Below are positions 2,094-44,504 of a DNA stretch of 64,000 nucleotides, in pieces. The stretch lies in the NCBI GenBank assembly GCA_036725345.1, contig DAIMEJ010000004.1:63735-127734 (forward strand), in the 5' to 3' direction. Source of the stretch: Syntrophales bacterium. Its GTDB lineage: Bacteria > Desulfobacterota > Syntrophia > Syntrophales > UBA2192. The notes beneath the pieces are model-generated. The model saw nothing but the letters and a program-made list of their open reading frames with translations. It did no database searches and was not told the DNA's origin. How positions within the stretch are numbered: position 1 is the stretch's first letter; every line of letters starts with the position of its first letter. Made by a program: the position numbers and the translations under genes.

Positions 2094-3764
2094 TCAGGCG
2101 ATTGGTTCATGCCCCGACGAACCCGTTGCAGCAGACGCAACAGGCAATGTAAAAAAGGGGGCGTGATTGGAGGTGAAAATAGGGGGGTCGCGGCGAAGGA
2201 TGGCCGCTATCGCCGGATGCTTCCTGAATTCCCTGTCTAGAAACGCGCGAACGGCCTTACGATCCCATCCGGCGGGATGAACGAAATCTTTGTAGAGGGA
2301 AAGATCTCCCTCGTAAAATGGTGAAGTTCTGTAGTCTTCCGTTTCCGGCCCCCGGGCCGGCATATTGAAGATCGCGACATTGAGAAAGCTGATGCATTCA
2401 CTCATCTCCACGGTGAACCGGAGTGTCTTTACGGCCCCCGTAGGCGTTTCCGGCGGCGTCCCGAAGAGGAGATAGACATAGGCGGCAATGCCGGCCTTCT
2501 TCAGGCACCGGAGGACCTTTCGTGCCACTGAGAGATCCACGCCCTTTTGAAGAGCATTTAAAACCCCCTGGTCCCCTGACTCGAGACCGATCTGAAGCAA
2601 CACGCAGCCCGATTGCTTGAGCCTCATGCAGAAATCCTCATCGGCCAGATGTTCCGTCACCCTGGCAAATCCGTACCACGGAACAGGGAGAGGCCCGCCG
2701 GCGAGTGCCTGGAGGAGCGCCGGGCTCAACGCATTGTCGAGAAAATGGACAAGCGCCGGCCGGTGCCTGGCGACCAGAATTCCGATTTCACGCAAGACCT
2801 GTCCCGGAGAGGCGGGTACGTAAGGGTTTCCTTCGGCCCTTTCGGGACAGAAAAGGCAGCGGCCCCAGTAGCAGCCGCTCGAGGCGCTGTAGGGAAGGAT
2901 CCCGCCCGGTGAAAGGTAGGCATCGAGAGGCATGGCGTTGTAATCGGGCGGGCAGACAACCTCCCCCTCCCCCCGTTGAATCTTCGCACCCAGGATGGCG
3001 GAGAGCTTTTGTTCCCCAGGCCCTTCGACCATGTGATCGACAAGGCCGTCGAAGGGATTCCCCCAACCGGGCCGCCGCATCCAGGAAGTGACCAGTCCCC
3101 CGCCGAGGATCACCCGGATATGGGGATGACGCCTCTTCACCATGCCGACCATGGCAAAGGTGCAGAGGGCCTGGCTGAGGTAATTGAGCGAGAACCCCAC
3201 GTGGGAGGGGTGATGCCGGTCGATTGCATCGTCGAGGAGATCCTGGAGGGGAGCGTGAAAAAGGTTCTCTTCGGGTCTACCCGCCATCCGGAGGAGATCG
3301 GCACTCCGCAGGGGGGAAAATTTCCGGTGAGCGAAGTTGGCAAGGCTCAAGGCCTGCTCACCCGACGGATCGGACACCGAGAGAAGCCGGTTGAGATCAT
3401 AAACAGCATGTTTGTAACGGGCAAAGCGGCTGCGCGTCCGGAAGTCCCGGAGCGTGTCAAGGTGGGCGGAAAGGCTGCGTTTCGCCCTCTCAGTCCAGGT
3501 ATCCGATGCCGGACTGTCCCGCCGGAGGAAGTGTGTGAGTCCCGCCAGGTTCGCGTCGAGGAGGGAACACCGGATTCGGGCACGATTCCGCAGAAAACCG
3601 GCAATCTTTGCAATGCCGGCGGGCGGTTCACAGGGTTTGGAGACGGGCGGATGGACGAGCAGTATCACCCAGGGACCCCCGATGCGAAGTCTTAAAACCC
3701 CTGTTTCTCTCCTGGAGAAACCTGAGCATTCCGTAGACGACATCCACCGGCAAGGTGATTCCAT
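2094..3764 (-). CDS. B12-binding-domain radical SAM protein (start codon uncertain)
   Basis: 556 aa. N-terminal Rossmann-like stretch (VILLVHPP...) and a cysteine cluster SSGCYWGRCLFCPE, with overall similarity to class B radical SAM enzymes. The first ~30 codons look non-native, so the true start may be internal. Confidence 0.75.
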   Translation of the reverse strand: MESPCRWMSSTECSGFSRRETGVLRLRIGGPWVILLVHPPVSKPCEPPAGIAKIAGFLRNRARIRCSLLDANLAGLTHFLRRDSPASDTWTERAKRSLSAHLDTLRDFRTRSRFARYKHAVYDLNRLLSVSDPSGEQALSLANFAHRKFSPLRSADLLRMAGRPEENLFHAPLQDLLDDAIDRHHPSHVGFSLNYLSQALCTFAMVGMVKRRHPHIRVILGGGLVTSWMRRPGWGNPFDGLVDHMVEGPGEQKLSAILGAKIQRGEGEVVCPPDYNAMPLDAYLSPGGILPYSASSGCYWGRCLFCPERAEGNPYVPASPGQVLREIGILVARHRPALVHFLDNALSPALLQALAGGPLPVPWYGFARVTEHLADEDFCMRLKQSGCVLLQIGLESGDQGVLNALQKGVDLSVARKVLRCLKKAGIAAYVYLLFGTPPETPTGAVKTLRFTVEMSECISFLNVAIFNMPARGPETEDYRTSPFYEGDLSLYKDFVHPAGWDRKAVRAFLDREFRKHPAIAAILRRDPPIFTSNHAPFFTLPVASAATGSSGHEPIA

Positions 3765-4038
3765 GTCCCAGCCGGGGCGAACGGCGGCCCTCCCGGGCCG
3801 AGGGCTTCTTAGCCTTTATTTATAATAATGATTTCAATGGGTTGCCCTATTGGAGGCGGTGAACATGGCAAGCCACAGGCCGAAATTTCTTCGTATATCA
3901 GGCAATGCATTTTCTTCCAACACCCGCCGCCCCACAGGCCGGTCACATTCAGAAACAGCTTTTTTATCCTAACAAATTGACGTTGACAAGGTATAATTAA
4001 TGTGTACCTTAATGATACCAATTCATCAGGAGGCTCGA

Positions 4039-4371
4039 ATGTTCGAAGTTACGGCAAAGGCGGAAGAGAAGTTCAACGAATTCTTCAAGTCGCGAACGGA
4101 AAAACCGTTTATCCGCATTTTTCTCCAGCAGGGGGGGTGATCCGGTCCCGCGCTCGGCATGGCTCTGGACGAGTCAAACGAAAGCGACGAGACCTTCAAG
4201 GTCAATGGCCTGACCTTCATGATCGAAAAGGAACTCTTTGAGATGGTGAAACCCCTCAAGATCGATTTCATGGAAACACCCCGGGGCGCCGGCTACATCA
4301 TCGAATCCAACCTGAAGGCGGCCGACGGCTGCGGCGGGTGCGCGGGGTCCTGCGGTTCATCCGAAGGGTGA
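4039..4371 (+). CDS. IscA/HesB-like Fe-S cluster protein, candidate selenoprotein (in-frame UGA at 4138-4140 read as Sec)
   Basis: The track gives only 4159..4371. An ATG at 4039 with SD AGGAGG 6-11 nt upstream opens the same frame: MFEVTAKAEEKFNEFFKSRTEKPFIRIFLQQGG-TGA-SGPALGMALDE... The TGA sits where IscA/HesB proteins have the Cys of the GGCSG motif. The C-terminal Cys cluster GCGGCAGSCG is retained. selB lies in the same window. Confidence 0.75.
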
Positions 4372-4404
4372 GGCGGCATTTCCGGCAGAAAACGTGAACA
4401 GCGC

Positions 4405-4434
4405 AAAAAAGGGGAACAGACGTTCCCCTTTTTT
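4405..4434. terminator. bidirectional rho-independent terminator between convergent genes
   Basis: AAAAAA-GGGGAAC-agac-GTTCCCC-TTTTTT. A perfect 7-bp stem flanked by an A-run and a T-run, between the HesB-like gene (+) and the ABC-F gene (-). Confidence 0.75.
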
Positions 4435-4474: not shown

Positions 4475-6454
4475 TCATCCTTCTGTTTCAACCGCATCGA
4501 TCCGGTTTTGGATCTCCTCCCATTCGACGTAAAGGGTGTCGAGGCGGGCCGTCAGCTCCCGGTACTCGACAGCGGCCGCCCGTGTCTTTTTCTCGTCCTG
4601 GTAGATCTTCCCGTCAGCGAAAAGAGCCTCCATCTCTTTTTTCTTTGCCTCTCCTGCCCCGATTTCACGCTGGAGTCCCTCAAGTTCGTCCTTCAGGGGC
4701 TTCAGACGGTCGAAGCGCTCCTGCCTCTTCTTTGCCTCGTCTCGTTTGCGCATTCTTTCGAGGTGAAGGGGGGAGTGACCCTTAATCGCCTTGATCGCCC
4801 TGCCCGCCGTGTCCCGCCGTACGGTCTTATCGTCATCGGCGAGTCGGCTTTTTTCGAGATATTCGTCCACGGAACCGTAGGCAACCCGCAGCACGCCCTC
4901 TTCCATCTCCCAGACCATGCCCACCAGGCCGTCCAGAAAGTCCCGATCATGAGATACGATGATGTAGGCGCCGGGAAAGCTCTCCAGGGCCCTCTTGAGC
5001 ACCTCCTTGGACCGCAGATCCAGATGGTTGGTCGGCTCGTCGAAAAGAAGAAGATTGGCAGGCACCAGGAGCATCTTGGCCAGGGCAAGCCGGCTCTTCT
5101 CGCCGCCGGAAAGAACGGAAACGGGTTTGAAGACATCCTCGTCCCGGAAGAGAAAGGATCCGAGGAGGGTTCTCAGGCGGGTGTTCGTCTCCTTTGTCGC
5201 CACCTCTTCCAGGGTCTGGAGAACCGTCTTCGACGGGTCGAGCGCCTCCGCCTGGTTCTGCGCGTAGTAGGAAACCACGGCTTTGTATCCGGGCTCGCAC
5301 CGGCCCTCCTGGAAATCCTCCAGTCCTGCCATGATCCGGACGAGTGTGGATTTCCCCGACCCGTTCACCCCGAGCAGGGCGATCCGGTCGCTCCGCTGGA
5401 CGGAGATGGACAGATCACTGAAAACAGGCTGGCTCCCGTAATATTTGCCAAGCTCCCGGATTTCCATGACGACCCGGCTCGCCTGCGGCGGCTCCGGCAA
5501 ATCGAATGAGATGACGGCCTCTTCATTTTCCGGCTCGATCAATTCCATTTTCTCGAGCCGCCGGAGTCGGCTCTGGGCCTGCCGGGCCCTTGTTTTTTCG
5601 GCTCGATATCGCTCGACGAAACGCAGGGTCTGCCGGATTTCCTGCTGCTGGTTACGGTAGGCCGCTTCCCGGAGCGTCTTGCGCCGGCTCGCCTGTCCGA
5701 GATAGTCGGAGTAATTGCCGACATATTCCGAAACCGCACCCGCCGAGATTTCGAAGACACGGCCGACGAGATTATCGAGGAACCGCCTGTCATGGGACAC
5801 GAGGATAACCGCCCCGTCGTAAGACTGAAGATACGATTCAAGCCACTGGAGCGATTGGATATCCAGATGGTTGGTGGGTTCGTCGAGAAGAAGACAGGTG
5901 GGTTCTCTCAGGAGGAGTTTCGACAGCTCGATCCTCATCTGCCAGCCGCCGCTGAACTCCTCCGTCATCCGGCCGAACTCCGGTCCCCGGAAGCCCAGCC
6001 CGGACAGGACCTGCTTGATCTTCACATCGATGTCATATCCCTCCAGGTGCTCCACGTGATGCTGAATCTTCCCCAGTTCGGAGAGCAGTTCCTTCAACCC
6101 CGCGGGATCCGGATCACCCGCAACGGTCCGATCGGCGATTTCAACGCTCAGCCCCTCCATCTGCGCGTGGAGAGAAAGAATCTCGTCGAAGGCAAGCCTT
6201 ACTTCATCCAGGAGGGTGCGGCCCGTGTAACGGACCGCCTCCTGGGGAAGATAGCCCGTCGTGGCAGAGCGCGGCCGGTTGACCCGTCCGGTGTCGGCCT
6301 CGACGATCCCGGCGATGATCTTCATGAGTGTTGTCTTGCCCGCTCCGTTCGGACCCACGACGGCCACCTTTTCCCCTTCGTTGATGCGGATCGTGAGATC
6401 CCTGAACAGATACCGGCCGCCGTACTGCTTTGATATGCCCTGTAATGAAATCAT
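4475..6454 (-). CDS. ABC-F family ATPase (two NBDs, C-terminal coiled coil; Uup/YheS-like)
   Basis: 659 aa. Two Walker A motifs (GPNGAGKTT, GVNGSGKST), two LSGG signatures (FSGGWQMR, LSGGEKSR), Walker B LLLDEPTNHLD and LLFDEPTNHLD, no TM domain, charged C-terminal tail. Confidence 0.9.
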   Translation of the reverse strand: MISLQGISKQYGGRYLFRDLTIRINEGEKVAVVGPNGAGKTTLMKIIAGIVEADTGRVNRPRSATTGYLPQEAVRYTGRTLLDEVRLAFDEILSLHAQMEGLSVEIADRTVAGDPDPAGLKELLSELGKIQHHVEHLEGYDIDVKIKQVLSGLGFRGPEFGRMTEEFSGGWQMRIELSKLLLREPTCLLLDEPTNHLDIQSLQWLESYLQSYDGAVILVSHDRRFLDNLVGRVFEISAGAVSEYVGNYSDYLGQASRRKTLREAAYRNQQQEIRQTLRFVERYRAEKTRARQAQSRLRRLEKMELIEPENEEAVISFDLPEPPQASRVVMEIRELGKYYGSQPVFSDLSISVQRSDRIALLGVNGSGKSTLVRIMAGLEDFQEGRCEPGYKAVVSYYAQNQAEALDPSKTVLQTLEEVATKETNTRLRTLLGSFLFRDEDVFKPVSVLSGGEKSRLALAKMLLVPANLLLFDEPTNHLDLRSKEVLKRALESFPGAYIIVSHDRDFLDGLVGMVWEMEEGVLRVAYGSVDEYLEKSRLADDDKTVRRDTAGRAIKAIKGHSPLHLERMRKRDEAKKRQERFDRLKPLKDELEGLQREIGAGEAKKKEMEALFADGKIYQDEKKTRAAAVEYRELTARLDTLYVEWEEIQNRIDAVETEG

Positions 6455-41570: not shown

Positions 41571-42371
41571 TCAGAACCTGATCCGTTCCGGGTGGGCATA
41601 TATCCTCATTTTACCGTTTCTCACGTAACCGATCAGCGTGATGCCGAACTCTTCAGCCAGGGCGACCGCCCTCGAGGTGGGCGCCGAGTGAGATATGATC
41701 AGTGAAACGCACATGGTGCGAATCTTGTGGATGATCTCAGCGGACACGCGCCCCGTCGTCAGGATAACCTTGTCCTTCGGGGACAGCTCCTTCAGGAGGG
41801 CGTAGCCGCTCAGCATGTCGAGGGTATTGTGTCTCCCGATATCCTCGCGGGCGACGATGATCTTCTGTGGTGTCGCCAGGGCGGAGCAGTGTGTCCCCCG
41901 CGTGGCATCGTGCAGCTCCCCCGAGCGAAGAAGACCGTTCATCAGTCTCAAAACGTTCCGGGGCGTCAGGGCCGGACCGCCGTTTGCCTTCCTCTTCAGG
42001 CCCGTCCCCGCGTCGTCATAGGCGACCACGCCGCGGGCGCCGCTGGAGGCCAGTGTCCGGCCGGCCTTCTTTCCGAGAACCCTGCGACCCTTCCCCGCGG
42101 CGACGCGGACCTCGACCCGGCCGCCGTCTGCCGTAACATCGAGGGCGAGGATGTCTCTCCTGTCTTTCACGACCCCTTCCGAACGCAGGAACCCTGCGGC
42201 GAGTTCCTCCAGATGTTCGCCCGTGCAGGCGACACTGACCACGCGCCTGCCGTTGAGGACGATCTCCACCATGCGTTCCCGTATGACGGCGGCGGACGTT
42301 CTCGAAGCCTCCTTCGTGTCGCAGAGGACCATCCTCACCTTCTCGACGGGGCCGGATGGTTTCTTTTTCAT
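41571..42371 (-). CDS. fdhD: formate dehydrogenase accessory sulfurtransferase FdhD
   Basis: 266 aa. EDIGRHNTLD and GRVSAEI motifs. The start overlaps the selB stop (ATGA). Confidence 0.85.
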   Translation of the reverse strand: MKKKPSGPVEKVRMVLCDTKEASRTSAAVIRERMVEIVLNGRRVVSVACTGEHLEELAAGFLRSEGVVKDRRDILALDVTADGGRVEVRVAAGKGRRVLGKKAGRTLASSGARGVVAYDDAGTGLKRKANGGPALTPRNVLRLMNGLLRSGELHDATRGTHCSALATPQKIIVAREDIGRHNTLDMLSGYALLKELSPKDKVILTTGRVSAEIIHKIRTMCVSLIISHSAPTSRAVALAEEFGITLIGYVRNGKMRIYAHPERIRF

Positions 42372-44287
42372 TTCTCCTTGCGCTCCCTGAGCATACGGTG
42401 ATCACCCACCCGCATGGTGAGCTTGGTCGCGTCAAAATATTCCATGAGCGGTATGATGAACTTGCGGGTAAGCCCCGTGAGATCCTTGAAGGTCGCCGGC
42501 GTCGCCTTGCCGTCTTTCGTGAGAAGCTTCACGTAATCGTTCCTCAGCTGATCCATGGGGTTCCTGTGGAAGTACAGTTCTTCCGTCACCTTCAGGAGAA
42601 TGCCCTCCTTGAGGAGAACGCCGAGGACGCTCTGGACCTCCTCCGGCCTCGAATCGAAGCCCTCCAGGACCTCTTTCACGAGGGGTGGGGTGAGCTTTGC
42701 CTTGAGATAAGTCTGCGCGATCTTCGCCTTCAGTCCTTCCAGTTCACCCTTCAGACTCACCCGGTGACCCGTAAGACGGACGCTTTCTTTCTCGACGGCA
42801 ATACGGCCTTCTTTTTCCAGTTCCTTTGCGGCCATGTTGAAAAGTTTCGCATCAACCTCCCCGGGGAGGATCATGCGGAGCTCCTCTTTCGGCATTCCTT
42901 CCTTCAGGGGGTGTTTGCGGTGATAACCCTCGATCTCGGCGAGGAGCCTTTCTTGAAGGGCCTGGTAGGCGGGATAGGCAACGATCCTCGATCCATCCTT
43001 CTCCGGCAGGATAACCTTCTTTTTCTGGGTGAAGTCCTTGATGATTTTCTGGAGATCCGCCATGGGCATGCCGCTACGAACGGCGAGATCCCGGGCGGAC
43101 AGGCCGGCAGGCCCCGTTCGCGCAATGATGGTTTCGGCCCTCTCGGCGTCACCGCCCGAATGAAGAACCTCCAGTTCCGCCAGAAATTTGTTGATGCCCC
43201 GCTTTTGCTTCCGACCCCGGGGATCGAGGATTTCGCCGCCGCCGATGGTCCTCACCGGGGAATAGCTTCGAATGACGAAGCGGTCCCCCCCCATGACGAC
43301 GACCGGGGACTCCGGAAGCACCTGGGCAAAGGCATTCTCGCCGGGCTCAAGCTCCTCCCGGGTGAAAAGAAGAACCCTCGCGACGATCTCGCTGGTTCCC
43401 GAGTGAAATCTAACCAGGTTTCTCGTCTTGAGCTTCCGCTCGCCCCCGCGCAAATAGTGGAGGTAAACGTCAAGCCGTTGAGAGGGTTCGAAGATCCCCG
43501 GGTGCGTCAGCACCTCCCCCCGCGCGACCGTCTCCTTTTCCACGCCCTGGAGGTTGATGGCCGTCCGCTGCCCCGACTGGGCGGCATCCCGGCTTTCGTT
43601 GTGCACCTGGATCCCCCTGATCTTGGCCTGGATCTGCGAAGGCATGACCTCCACCGTATCCCCGACCTCCACCTTTCCGGAGATGAGGGTTCCCGTGACC
43701 ACGGTGCCGAAACCTTTCATCGTGAAAACCCGATCGATGGGAAGCCGGAAAAGACCCGATTCGCGCCGTTCCTCGAGGAGAGCGGCGGCATCCTCTATCG
43801 CCCGGCGAAGTTCCGGTATACCTCTGCCCGTTACGGCGGAACAGGAGATCAGGGGCGCATCGGCCAGGAAGGTCCCCTTCAGATATTCCCGGATGTCGTC
43901 CGTCACGAGGGACAGCCACTCTTCTTCCACCAAATCGACCTTGGTGATCGCCACGACACCGTGCCGGATGCCGAGAAGCGCGCAGATGTCGAGGTGTTCT
44001 CTCGTCTGCGGCATGATGCCCTCGTCGGCCGCGATGACCATGACGACAAGATCGATCCCCGAGGCCCCCGCGACCATGTTCTTCACGAATTTTTCATGCC
44101 CCGGAACATCGACGACGCTGATCCGCTCGTCGCCGTCCAGGTCAAGGGGCGCAAAACCCAGCTCAATCGTGATCCCCCGCTCCTTTTCCTCCTTGAGACG
44201 ATCGGTGTCCACGCCGGTCAACGCCCTGACCAGGGCCGTTTTCCCATGATCCACATGTCCGGCCGTGCCGAGAACGATATGTTTCAT
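42368..44287 (-). CDS. selB: selenocysteine-specific translation elongation factor SelB
   Basis: Family-like start MKHIVLGTAGHVDHGKT at ATG 44287. G-domain motifs DVPGHEKF and TKVD, EF-Tu-like domains II/III, and a long C-terminal winged-helix extension (~270 aa). Confidence 0.9.
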   Translation of the reverse strand: MKHIVLGTAGHVDHGKTALVRALTGVDTDRLKEEKERGITIELGFAPLDLDGDERISVVDVPGHEKFVKNMVAGASGIDLVVMVIAADEGIMPQTREHLDICALLGIRHGVVAITKVDLVEEEWLSLVTDDIREYLKGTFLADAPLISCSAVTGRGIPELRRAIEDAAALLEERRESGLFRLPIDRVFTMKGFGTVVTGTLISGKVEVGDTVEVMPSQIQAKIRGIQVHNESRDAAQSGQRTAINLQGVEKETVARGEVLTHPGIFEPSQRLDVYLHYLRGGERKLKTRNLVRFHSGTSEIVARVLLFTREELEPGENAFAQVLPESPVVVMGGDRFVIRSYSPVRTIGGGEILDPRGRKQKRGINKFLAELEVLHSGGDAERAETIIARTGPAGLSARDLAVRSGMPMADLQKIIKDFTQKKKVILPEKDGSRIVAYPAYQALQERLLAEIEGYHRKHPLKEGMPKEELRMILPGEVDAKLFNMAAKELEKEGRIAVEKESVRLTGHRVSLKGELEGLKAKIAQTYLKAKLTPPLVKEVLEGFDSRPEEVQSVLGVLLKEGILLKVTEELYFHRNPMDQLRNDYVKLLTKDGKATPATFKDLTGLTRKFIIPLMEYFDATKLTMRVGDHRMLRERKEK

Positions 44288-44504
44288 CCTGCGGTTCTTC
44301 CCGTCCTGAAAGATCACCCGGCCCCCGGCGGACAAGGGGGCTGCCTCCCGCCCTGTTCCACCGCGGTAAACCGGTGTTTCAGAAAAATAACAAAATGGCG
44401 GCATTTAAACAACCATTAAAAAACGAGGAACCCCTGGACAGCCGCCAGAAAGGGGTTGTCAGAAGCGCAGGTCCGTGTTAACAGACCCCCCAACGGTGCA
44501 GGAC

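Follow-up and report, generated by a model that had tools for sequence, protein, structure and literature searches.

An interrupted IscA/HesB-type reading frame in a Syntrophales contig

The stretch of DNA analysed here, referred to throughout as the window, comprises 64,000 nt of contig DAIMEJ010000004.1 from a Syntrophales bacterium (assembly GCA_036725345.1), and all coordinates are given within it. At 4039-4371 the window carries a reading frame resembling the genes for IscA/HesB proteins that is interrupted once, at codon 34, by a TGA triplet. Translation of 4039-4374 identifies this triplet (4138-4140) as the sole in-frame TGA before the stop codon of the frame, which is itself a TGA (4369-4371). 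Codons 1-33 read MFEVTAKAEEKFNEFFKSRTEKPFIRIFLQQGG, and the same frame continues past the interruption as SGPALGMALDES…. A preliminary description, made from the sequence letters, had reported an ATG at 4039 preceded by AGGAGG, a TGA at 4138-4140, and a frame that runs on into the open reading frame (ORF) at 4159-4371, an arrangement that we confirm base for base. The latter ORF, a 70-codon segment that is the only piece of the gene present in the mechanically generated ORF list, corresponds to Met41 onward of the 110-codon frame. We propose, with a probability of roughly 0.93, that 4039-4371 constitutes a single monocistronic gene encoding a 110-residue A-type (IscA/HesB-like) iron-sulfur (Fe-S) carrier in which codon 34 specifies selenocysteine (Sec).

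The features of the locus, together with those of the related loci discussed below, are collected in Table 1. Both flanking genes lie on the opposite strand, and the interrupted frame has its own promoter-like site and terminator, which leads us to regard it as monocistronic. The promoter-like site is the only one found between 3700 and 4600. The terminator is bounded by an A run as well as a T run, scores on both strands, and probably serves the convergent ABC-F gene as well.

Table 1. Coordinates of features in the window and, where a locus label beginning with L is given, in related loci.
Feature	Position	Strand	Remarks
Gene for B12/radical-SAM protein	2094-3764	-	upstream flank
Candidate sigma-70-like promoter, CTAACA-17-TATAAT	3969-3997	+	10 of 12 consensus matches; consensus only
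Shine-Dalgarno site, AGGAGG	4028-4033	+	5-nt spacer to ATG 4039
Candidate selenoprotein coding sequence (IscA/HesB-type)	4039-4371	+	110 codons plus stop; Sec would be residue 34
UGA proposed to be read as Sec	4138-4140	+	residue 34, GG-U-SGP motif; aligned with TGC/TGT of Cys-type homologs
Predicted extended lower stem	4138-4198	+	encloses the apical hairpin; window sequence only
Apical hairpin (putative Sec insertion sequence), UGGCUC-UGGAC-GAGUCA	4160-4176	+	pair probabilities 0.94-1.0
C-terminal Cys cluster, C98-G-G-C101-A-G-S-C105	4330-4353	+	aligns with C-terminal Cys ligands of IscA-type proteins
Intrinsic terminator	4405-4434	+	13-pair stem, then T run; strong
Gene for ABC-F ATPase	4475-6454	-	downstream flank
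fdhD	41571-42371	-	follows selB; overlaps selB stop by 4 nt
selB	42368-44404	-	TIGR00475, 368.7 bits (cutoff 242.25); full-length profile match
Tandem Cys- and Sec-type copies	L008:2992-3330 and 3511-3850	same strand
Tandem Cys- and Sec-type copies	L019:3001-3335 and 3425-3755	same strand
Tandem Cys- and Sec-type copies	L020:1335-1670 and 1759-2090	same strand
Tandem Cys- and Sec-type copies	L023:3001-3335 and 3427-3755	same strand
Second, upstream hairpin (examples)	L041:656-668; L055:3396-3408		window equivalent 4146-4158
TGA behind records translated with W	L161:348-662; L162:165-479; L163:271-585

The joined product matches a family of HesB-like proteins

When the window protein was scanned with cysteine written at residue 34, it matched the NCBIfam model NF038090 ("IscA_HesB_Se") at 110.6 bits against a cutoff of 85 (E 3.7e-32), with residues 1-101 aligned to profile positions 1-99 of 101, and thus over the full length of the profile. 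The 33 residues upstream of the TGA, which the preliminary description had judged to be a genuine IscA/HesB N-terminus, give this match once they are joined to the rest, and the search for orthologs that it had called for recovers both Cys-type and Sec-type forms. The NF038090 cutoff is also passed by all ten relatives scanned (seven Sec-type and three Cys-type), and the published HesB-like selenoproteins of S. aciditrophicus, S. fumaroxidans, and D. vulgaris score 106.8, 114.1, and 113.9 bits, respectively (sequences from additional file 4 of Zhang et al., 2006, PMC1794560). These published sequences bear the same GGUSGP…LDE motif as the window protein, which is 47% identical to the S. aciditrophicus protein and 49% identical to that of S. 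fumaroxidans.

Other models place the protein less firmly. The match to Pfam PF01521 (Fe-S_biosyn) is marginal (27.0 bits, gathering threshold 26.3), that to TIGR00049 lies slightly under its cutoff (58.2 versus 58.8), and TIGR01911 ("HesB_rel_seleno") is reached neither by the window protein (45.0 bits, cutoff 66.35) nor by any of the ten relatives. By these profile scores, the window protein is assigned to NF038090, a sister subfamily of TIGR01911. A search of the literature for the name 'NF038090' found no match.

Among proteins of solved structure, the closest in sequence is Aquifex AQ_1857 (1nwb; E 5e-10), whose GGCSG aligns with the GG-U-SG of the window protein. The fold was assessed on a Cys-type homolog, P0008, which is about 54-55% identical and stands in for the window protein. 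Its AlphaFold (AF2) model has a predicted local distance difference test score of 81.7, with a C-terminal tail of low confidence, and the top Foldseek matches (E 1e-6 to 1e-5; template modelling score about 0.7) are IscA bearing a [2Fe-2S] cluster (1x0g), E. coli IscA (1r94 and 1s98), and SufA (2d2a). The cysteines C98, C101, and C105 of the C-terminal cluster are presumed to be the partner ligands of Sec34.

The interrupting TGA recurs at a codon occupied by cysteine in homologs

A protein search returned 46 relatives, most of them entries of 63-68 aa that start at an internal Met, together with five full-length Cys forms, two with "W", and one N-terminal fragment ending …IFLQQGG. The Cys-type homologs, 104-113 aa long, are uninterrupted. 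Scanning genome contigs with the motif QGG[CW]SGP, which directly retrieves Cys-type codons only, yielded 31 Desulfobacterota loci in which the codon in question is TGC or TGT. The Sec-type set was assembled by scanning metagenome contigs with a degenerate DNA pattern containing TGA, which gave at least 120 loci whose corresponding codon is TGA and at least 119 distinct proteins, a recurrence far beyond chance. The distinct sequences compared at this codon, among the matches listed, comprise 34 with TGY and 111 with TGA. The suggestion that the TGA replaces the Cys of the GGCSG motif is borne out by this alignment, in which it falls opposite the GGCSGP cysteine of Cys-type homologs. The same organization is evident in a Syntrophales relative (P0007), whose upstream DNA reads MFEVTAKAEVQL…NQGG-TGA-AGPQLGMALDE.

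Four of the 31 loci (L008, L019, L020, and L023) carry a second, TGA-containing paralog 0.4-0.5 kb downstream of the Cys-type copy. These tandem pairs, separated by a gap of about 0.1 kb, are found in Desulfobulbales and Desulfocapsaceae and resemble Sec/Cys isoenzyme pairs. Pairs of this kind serve selenium-replete versus selenium-limited conditions. One metagenomic relative (L062:163-530) diverges fully past residue ~70 and is 15 residues longer, most likely because that contig contains a frameshift or was misassembled.

Start position and coding character were examined in 80 full-length relatives drawn from the metagenomic matches listed. In most of the at least 119 distinct proteins the ATG lies exactly 33 codons upstream of the TGA, and in some 34-37 codons upstream; a Shine-Dalgarno-like motif precedes this ATG in 78 of the 80. 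Entropy over codons 2-33 amounts to 0.92 bits at the first codon position, 0.58 bits at the second, and 1.60 bits at the third, a pattern indicative of protein-coding evolution in the 33 codons that precede the TGA, and a comparison of the window with one relative (L037) over this region reveals 10 synonymous and 6 nonsynonymous codon changes. The preliminary description had allowed that the region upstream of the TGA might lack conservation at the protein level, which the codon-position pattern contradicts, and that orthologs might begin at the downstream Met. Database entries of the latter form do exist; they are gene-calling artefacts, and the DNA beneath them encodes the conserved N-terminus followed by the TGA.

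A hairpin downstream of the UGA is conserved in Sec-type genes

For the analysis of RNA structure, positions were numbered from the U of the UGA, and 111 distinct Sec-type sequences were compared with 34 Cys-type sequences. The Sec-type sequences are invariant at +25 to +32 (GCUCUGGA) and at +34 to +36 (GAG), and +24 is G in 109 of the 111. The synonymous sites +27 (Ala), +30 (Leu), and +36 (Glu) carry 0, 0, and 0 bits of entropy in the Sec-type set versus 1.76, 1.04, and 1.15 bits in the Cys-type homologs. Because positions from +27 on lie outside the pattern used to retrieve the sequences, this invariance is not an ascertainment effect.

The conserved positions form a hairpin with the family consensus GGCUC-UGGAU-GAG[C/U][C/U]. 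In the window, nucleotides 4160-4165 pair with 4171-4176 (U-A, G-C, G·U, C-G, U-A, and C-G) around the loop UGGAC (4166-4170), which has GG at 4167-4168 and begins 25 nt after the UGA. Among Sec-type sequences, the pair 24-38 is G-C in 102, G-U in 7, and A-U in 2, and for 25-37 the counts are 84 G-C and 28 G-U. The mean energy of the hairpin is -8.18 kcal/mol in Sec-type sequences versus -1.98 kcal/mol in Cys-type sequences, and 96.9% of the helix cells in the alignment (A3) can pair, a share that drops to 18-52% if the 3′ partners are displaced by 1-3 columns. That the hairpin is conserved specifically in Sec-type genes points to selection on the RNA rather than on the protein.

According to the published model of the bacterial selenocysteine insertion sequence (bSECIS), that of bSECISearch by Zhang and Gladyshev as described in PMC13188914, the stem should have 4-16 bp and the loop 3-9 nt, with a G within the first two nucleotides of the loop; the distance from the UGA should be 16-37 nt and the free energy -7.5 kcal/mol or lower. 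With its 5-nt loop, 6-bp stem, G at loop position 2, and distance of 25 nt, the window hairpin fits the structural part of this model throughout. When the whole window was searched against Rfam at gathering thresholds no match was obtained, a result that is neutral with regard to a SECIS since Rfam is blind to such an element.

The preliminary description had drawn a different hairpin by hand, at 4152-4174, with its apical loop about 19 nt after the UGA. Its arms, GCUCG (4152-4156) and CGAGU (4170-4174), exist and are complementary, but their pair probability in the thermodynamic ensemble is about 0. We rejected this structure, which has an energy of -5.2 kcal/mol and a 5′ arm that is not conserved. 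The stable SECIS-like fold that the preliminary description had sought is nevertheless present in the form of the conserved hairpin, 8 nt downstream of the hand-drawn one, and the spacing of 19 nt gives way to one of 25 nt.

The residue following the ALDE sequence (+37 to +39; Ser, 4174-4176, in the window) is nearly always Pro, Ser, or Leu in Sec-type proteins, with Glu, Lys, or Ala being frequent at this place in Cys-type homologs. In the Sec-type genes the codon after Asp-Glu is limited to those starting with [C/U][C/U], and it thereby supplies the pyrimidines that close the SECIS stem. Thus, the stem appears to dictate the choice of amino acid at this site.

A second hairpin in most Sec-type relatives

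Most Sec-type relatives have a second hairpin immediately upstream of the SECIS hairpin (+9 to +21; A3 columns 9-21), with the sequence GGNCCC-UCNYU-GGGNN, composed of Gly-Pro-Ser-Leu-Gly codons (Table 1). Its two synonymous sites show covariation: +12/+18 forms C-G in 83 sequences and a compensatory A-U in 5, and the pair +9/+21 can form in 58% of sequences versus 37% expected. In addition, the Pro codon CCC and the Leu codon CUG are enriched in Sec-type relative to Cys-type homologs. On the strength of these sequence comparisons, the recoding signal of the subfamily may be bipartite, with the upstream hairpin as a putative accessory element absent from the published bSECIS model. Lineages without this hairpin may compensate by means of a long lower stem enclosing the SECIS hairpin.

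SelB and the use of TGA as a stop codon in the window

Translation of UGA as Sec in bacteria involves the elongation factor SelB, and the preliminary description had placed its gene in the same window; selB is indeed encoded there (Table 1). Residue 43 of the ORF (MKHIVLGTAGHVDHGKT) is the first to align with the profile, and selB therefore probably starts at the ATG near 44278 instead. The arrangement of selB and fdhD suggests an operon; no catalytic subunit of formate dehydrogenase was seen in the window.

Among 16 well-supported genes of the window, 14 end in TGA, 2 in TAA, and none in TAG, and the Sec-type genes themselves terminate with TGA in 43 of 108 cases among the matches listed. TGA is therefore not a general sense codon here. 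In such a TGA-preferring genome, with a GC content of 58.9%, SECIS-dependent discrimination of a Sec-UGA from a stop-UGA would be especially important. Other long frames interrupted by TGA in the window amount only to the noise typical of about 59% GC, and scans of 36 window ORFs against Pfam and NCBIfam, which identified ordinary housekeeping genes, yielded no second selenoprotein candidate.

Proposed mechanism and observations that weigh against it

By analogy with the established bacterial pathway, a complex of SelB, GTP, and Sec-tRNA(Sec) would bind the mRNA hairpin 4160-4176 as the ribosome arrives at the UGA at 4138, and SelB would deliver Sec at codon 34 in competition with release factor 2. 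By the further analogy of IscA structures, from which we infer the carrier role, Sec34 would stand in for the first of the three cysteines with which IscA ligates its cluster and, together with C98, C101, and C105, would hold a transient Fe-S cluster that is handed to apo-proteins. Sec34 may then act as a putative selenolate ligand, in which case these proteins would not be redox selenoproteins but selenium-ligated carriers whose transfer kinetics are altered. We consider the bipartite recoding signal and the selenolate ligand, taken jointly, an unlikely though by no means negligible pair of proposals.

A number of observations weigh against the interpretation of the gene as a SelB-decoded Fe-S carrier. 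The apical hairpin of the window has by itself an energy of -5.8 to -6.6 kcal/mol, short of the published threshold of -7.5 kcal/mol, a weakness attributable to its G·U pair and to the C in place of U at the last loop position. The fold of 4138-4200 (minimum free energy -22.9 kcal/mol, z = -1.96) does reach -7.5 kcal/mol when the lower stem is counted; conservation among relatives does not extend to the lower-stem pairs. Within the apical hairpin, three of the six pairs are invariant and so by themselves provide no evidence of covariation. The window also lacks the second, upstream hairpin (C at +18; -1.6 kcal/mol), because Ala-Leu (GCG CUC) replaces Ser-Leu (UCN CUG) after Gly-Pro, and has the long lower stem instead. 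No tRNA of any kind, tRNA(Sec) included, was found in the 64-kb window by ARAGORN, and neither selA nor selD is present among the window ORFs scanned. With respect to function, the protein falls far under the cutoffs of the equivalog models for IscA (34.5 versus 150.6 bits), SufA (43.7 versus 136.2), and ErpA (42.4 versus 117), and its C-terminal motif, CGGCxxxC, is without the canonical CxC spacing of IscA. The neighbourhoods of 116 loci contain no isc, suf, nif, or hydrogenase partner and hence no functional clue; the neighbours are lineage-specific housekeeping genes (named by eye as RdgB-like pyrophosphatase, ClpB, YggS-like, and phosphofructokinase-like), and none is common to the window and the relatives' loci. 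Finally, the function of HesB-like selenoproteins has been termed unclear, even for an archaeal member labelled with 75Se (PMC11097638).

Alternative explanations of the interrupted frame

The gene callers of JGI, ENA, and NCBI report exactly what two independent small genes would produce, namely a 33-aa peptide (4039-4140) and a 70-aa protein (4159-4371), and the ATG at 4159 is in frame and does open a 70-codon ORF. However, neither the 33-aa nor the 70-aa fragment matches a relevant family when scanned singly, whereas the joined product gives its 110.6-bit match over the full profile. A Shine-Dalgarno site precedes codon 41 in none of the 80 relatives, and this codon specifies Leu (TTG, CTG, CTA, or TTA) in 54 of 119 distinct relatives among the matches listed, so a start at this position is hard to reconcile with the family, whose Cys-type members are moreover continuous. 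We consider two separate genes extremely improbable. Fragmentary annotation is also what an IscA-type pseudogene would receive, and a change of one base suffices to turn TGC or TGT into TGA. A gene killed by such a nonsense mutation is nonetheless difficult to square with the presence of the same TGA in at least 120 loci encoding at least 119 distinct protein sequences, with an intact frame, start codon, and Shine-Dalgarno site and purifying selection on both halves, with an RNA hairpin conserved at synonymous sites specifically in Sec-type genes, or with the recurrence of identical contigs across many samples. Judged by these comparative data, the pseudogene explanation appears effectively refuted, and we give it next to no credence.

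The UGA might instead be recoded in another manner, either through a near-cognate Trp or Cys tRNA or through the insertion by SelB of Cys from a mis-charged tRNA(Sec) when selenium is scarce. Insertion of Cys at Sec codons under selenium limitation is known in other systems, and some public records do translate the codon as W (P0011 and P0013). The DNA underlying these 'W' entries nevertheless has TGA at this position (Table 1), and the Trp reflects the use by the gene caller of a genetic code in which TGA is a sense codon. TGA is, in addition, the main stop codon here, the conserved hairpin fits a bSECIS model that is SelB-dependent and selB is encoded in the window, and those members of the family that have been published count as selenoproteins. 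Recoding to an amino acid other than Sec thus seems to us highly improbable, and we favour a single gene with Sec at codon 34.

Relationship to known selenoproteins and Fe-S carriers

HesB-like proteins have been a listed family of bacterial selenoproteins since the mid-2000s, with members in Syntrophus aciditrophicus, Syntrophobacter fumaroxidans, and Desulfovibrio species (PMC1794560), and a 2026 review includes them under TIGR01911 with the motif UxGP (PMC13188914). The statement in the preliminary description that the family already figures in selenoproteome surveys was therefore correct. With the NF038090 proteins the window protein shares the motif GG-U-SGP-x-L-G-x-A-L-D-E, the placement of Sec at the position of the first Cys of IscA, a length of about 105-113 aa, a Cys-rich C-terminal tail, a deltaproteobacterial or Syntrophales host, and 47-49% identity to published members. 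It differs in that its C-terminus ends in CGGCAGSCGSSEG in place of ...CGSCSC, in the Ala-Leu that takes the place of Ser-Leu, and in not being labelled a selenoprotein in public records; none of these is an essential difference. TIGR01911, which includes the 75Se-labelled protein of Methanococcus maripaludis, has in common with the window protein the UxGP motif, Sec at the conserved HesB cysteine, and a small single-domain architecture, but its archaeal members use a SECIS in the 3′ untranslated region, whereas that proposed for the window lies within the coding region.

The likeness to IscA, SufA, and ErpA resides in the fold, as modelled for the Cys-type homolog, and in the presumed use of a first Cys or Sec plus C-terminal cysteines as ligand positions; the window protein departs from them in having Sec at ligand 1, CGGCxxxC in place of CxC, and no isc, suf, or nif operon. 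As in the bSECIS consensus and the SECIS of E. coli fdhF, the stem-loop is situated within the ORF just 3′ of the UGA and displays GG in its loop, although it does not resemble fdhF in sequence. Relative to bSECIS elements in general, the window hairpin is short, and the unusual invariance of its core, GGCUCUGGAUGAG, within the family stems from an overlap with the codons of the conserved Ala-Leu-Asp-Glu. The kind of gene, the mechanism, and the host clade are all known already, and it is the public annotation alone that is at fault.

Public annotation and significance

Contigs identical to the window have been called by JGI and ENA as a 33-aa gene plus a 70-aa gene, the Syntrophales relative P0007 has been split by gene callers in the same way, and GenBank lists the 70-aa piece as "hypothetical protein [Syntrophales bacterium]". 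The expectation that the gene would be mis-annotated as a 70-aa fragment is borne out in all three collections. Dozens of close relatives are likewise filed as "hypothetical protein" fragments of 33 aa and 63-70 aa, or with W at the Sec codon. As a consequence of this mis-annotation, selenoproteome counts for metagenome-assembled genomes of Syntrophales and Desulfobacterota are underestimated. The pattern TGA-N20-TGGCTCTGGAYGAG[CT][CT] provides a cheap and specific DNA signature with which the family may be recovered from unannotated contigs; a looser pattern than this core signature gave at least 120 loci in one scan. The family also supplies a clean Sec/Cys pair of natural origin at a ligand position of a metal cluster, with both versions occurring in tandem in some Desulfobulbales, and this pair could serve to address a question that is not in itself new, namely what role selenium plays in an Fe-S carrier.

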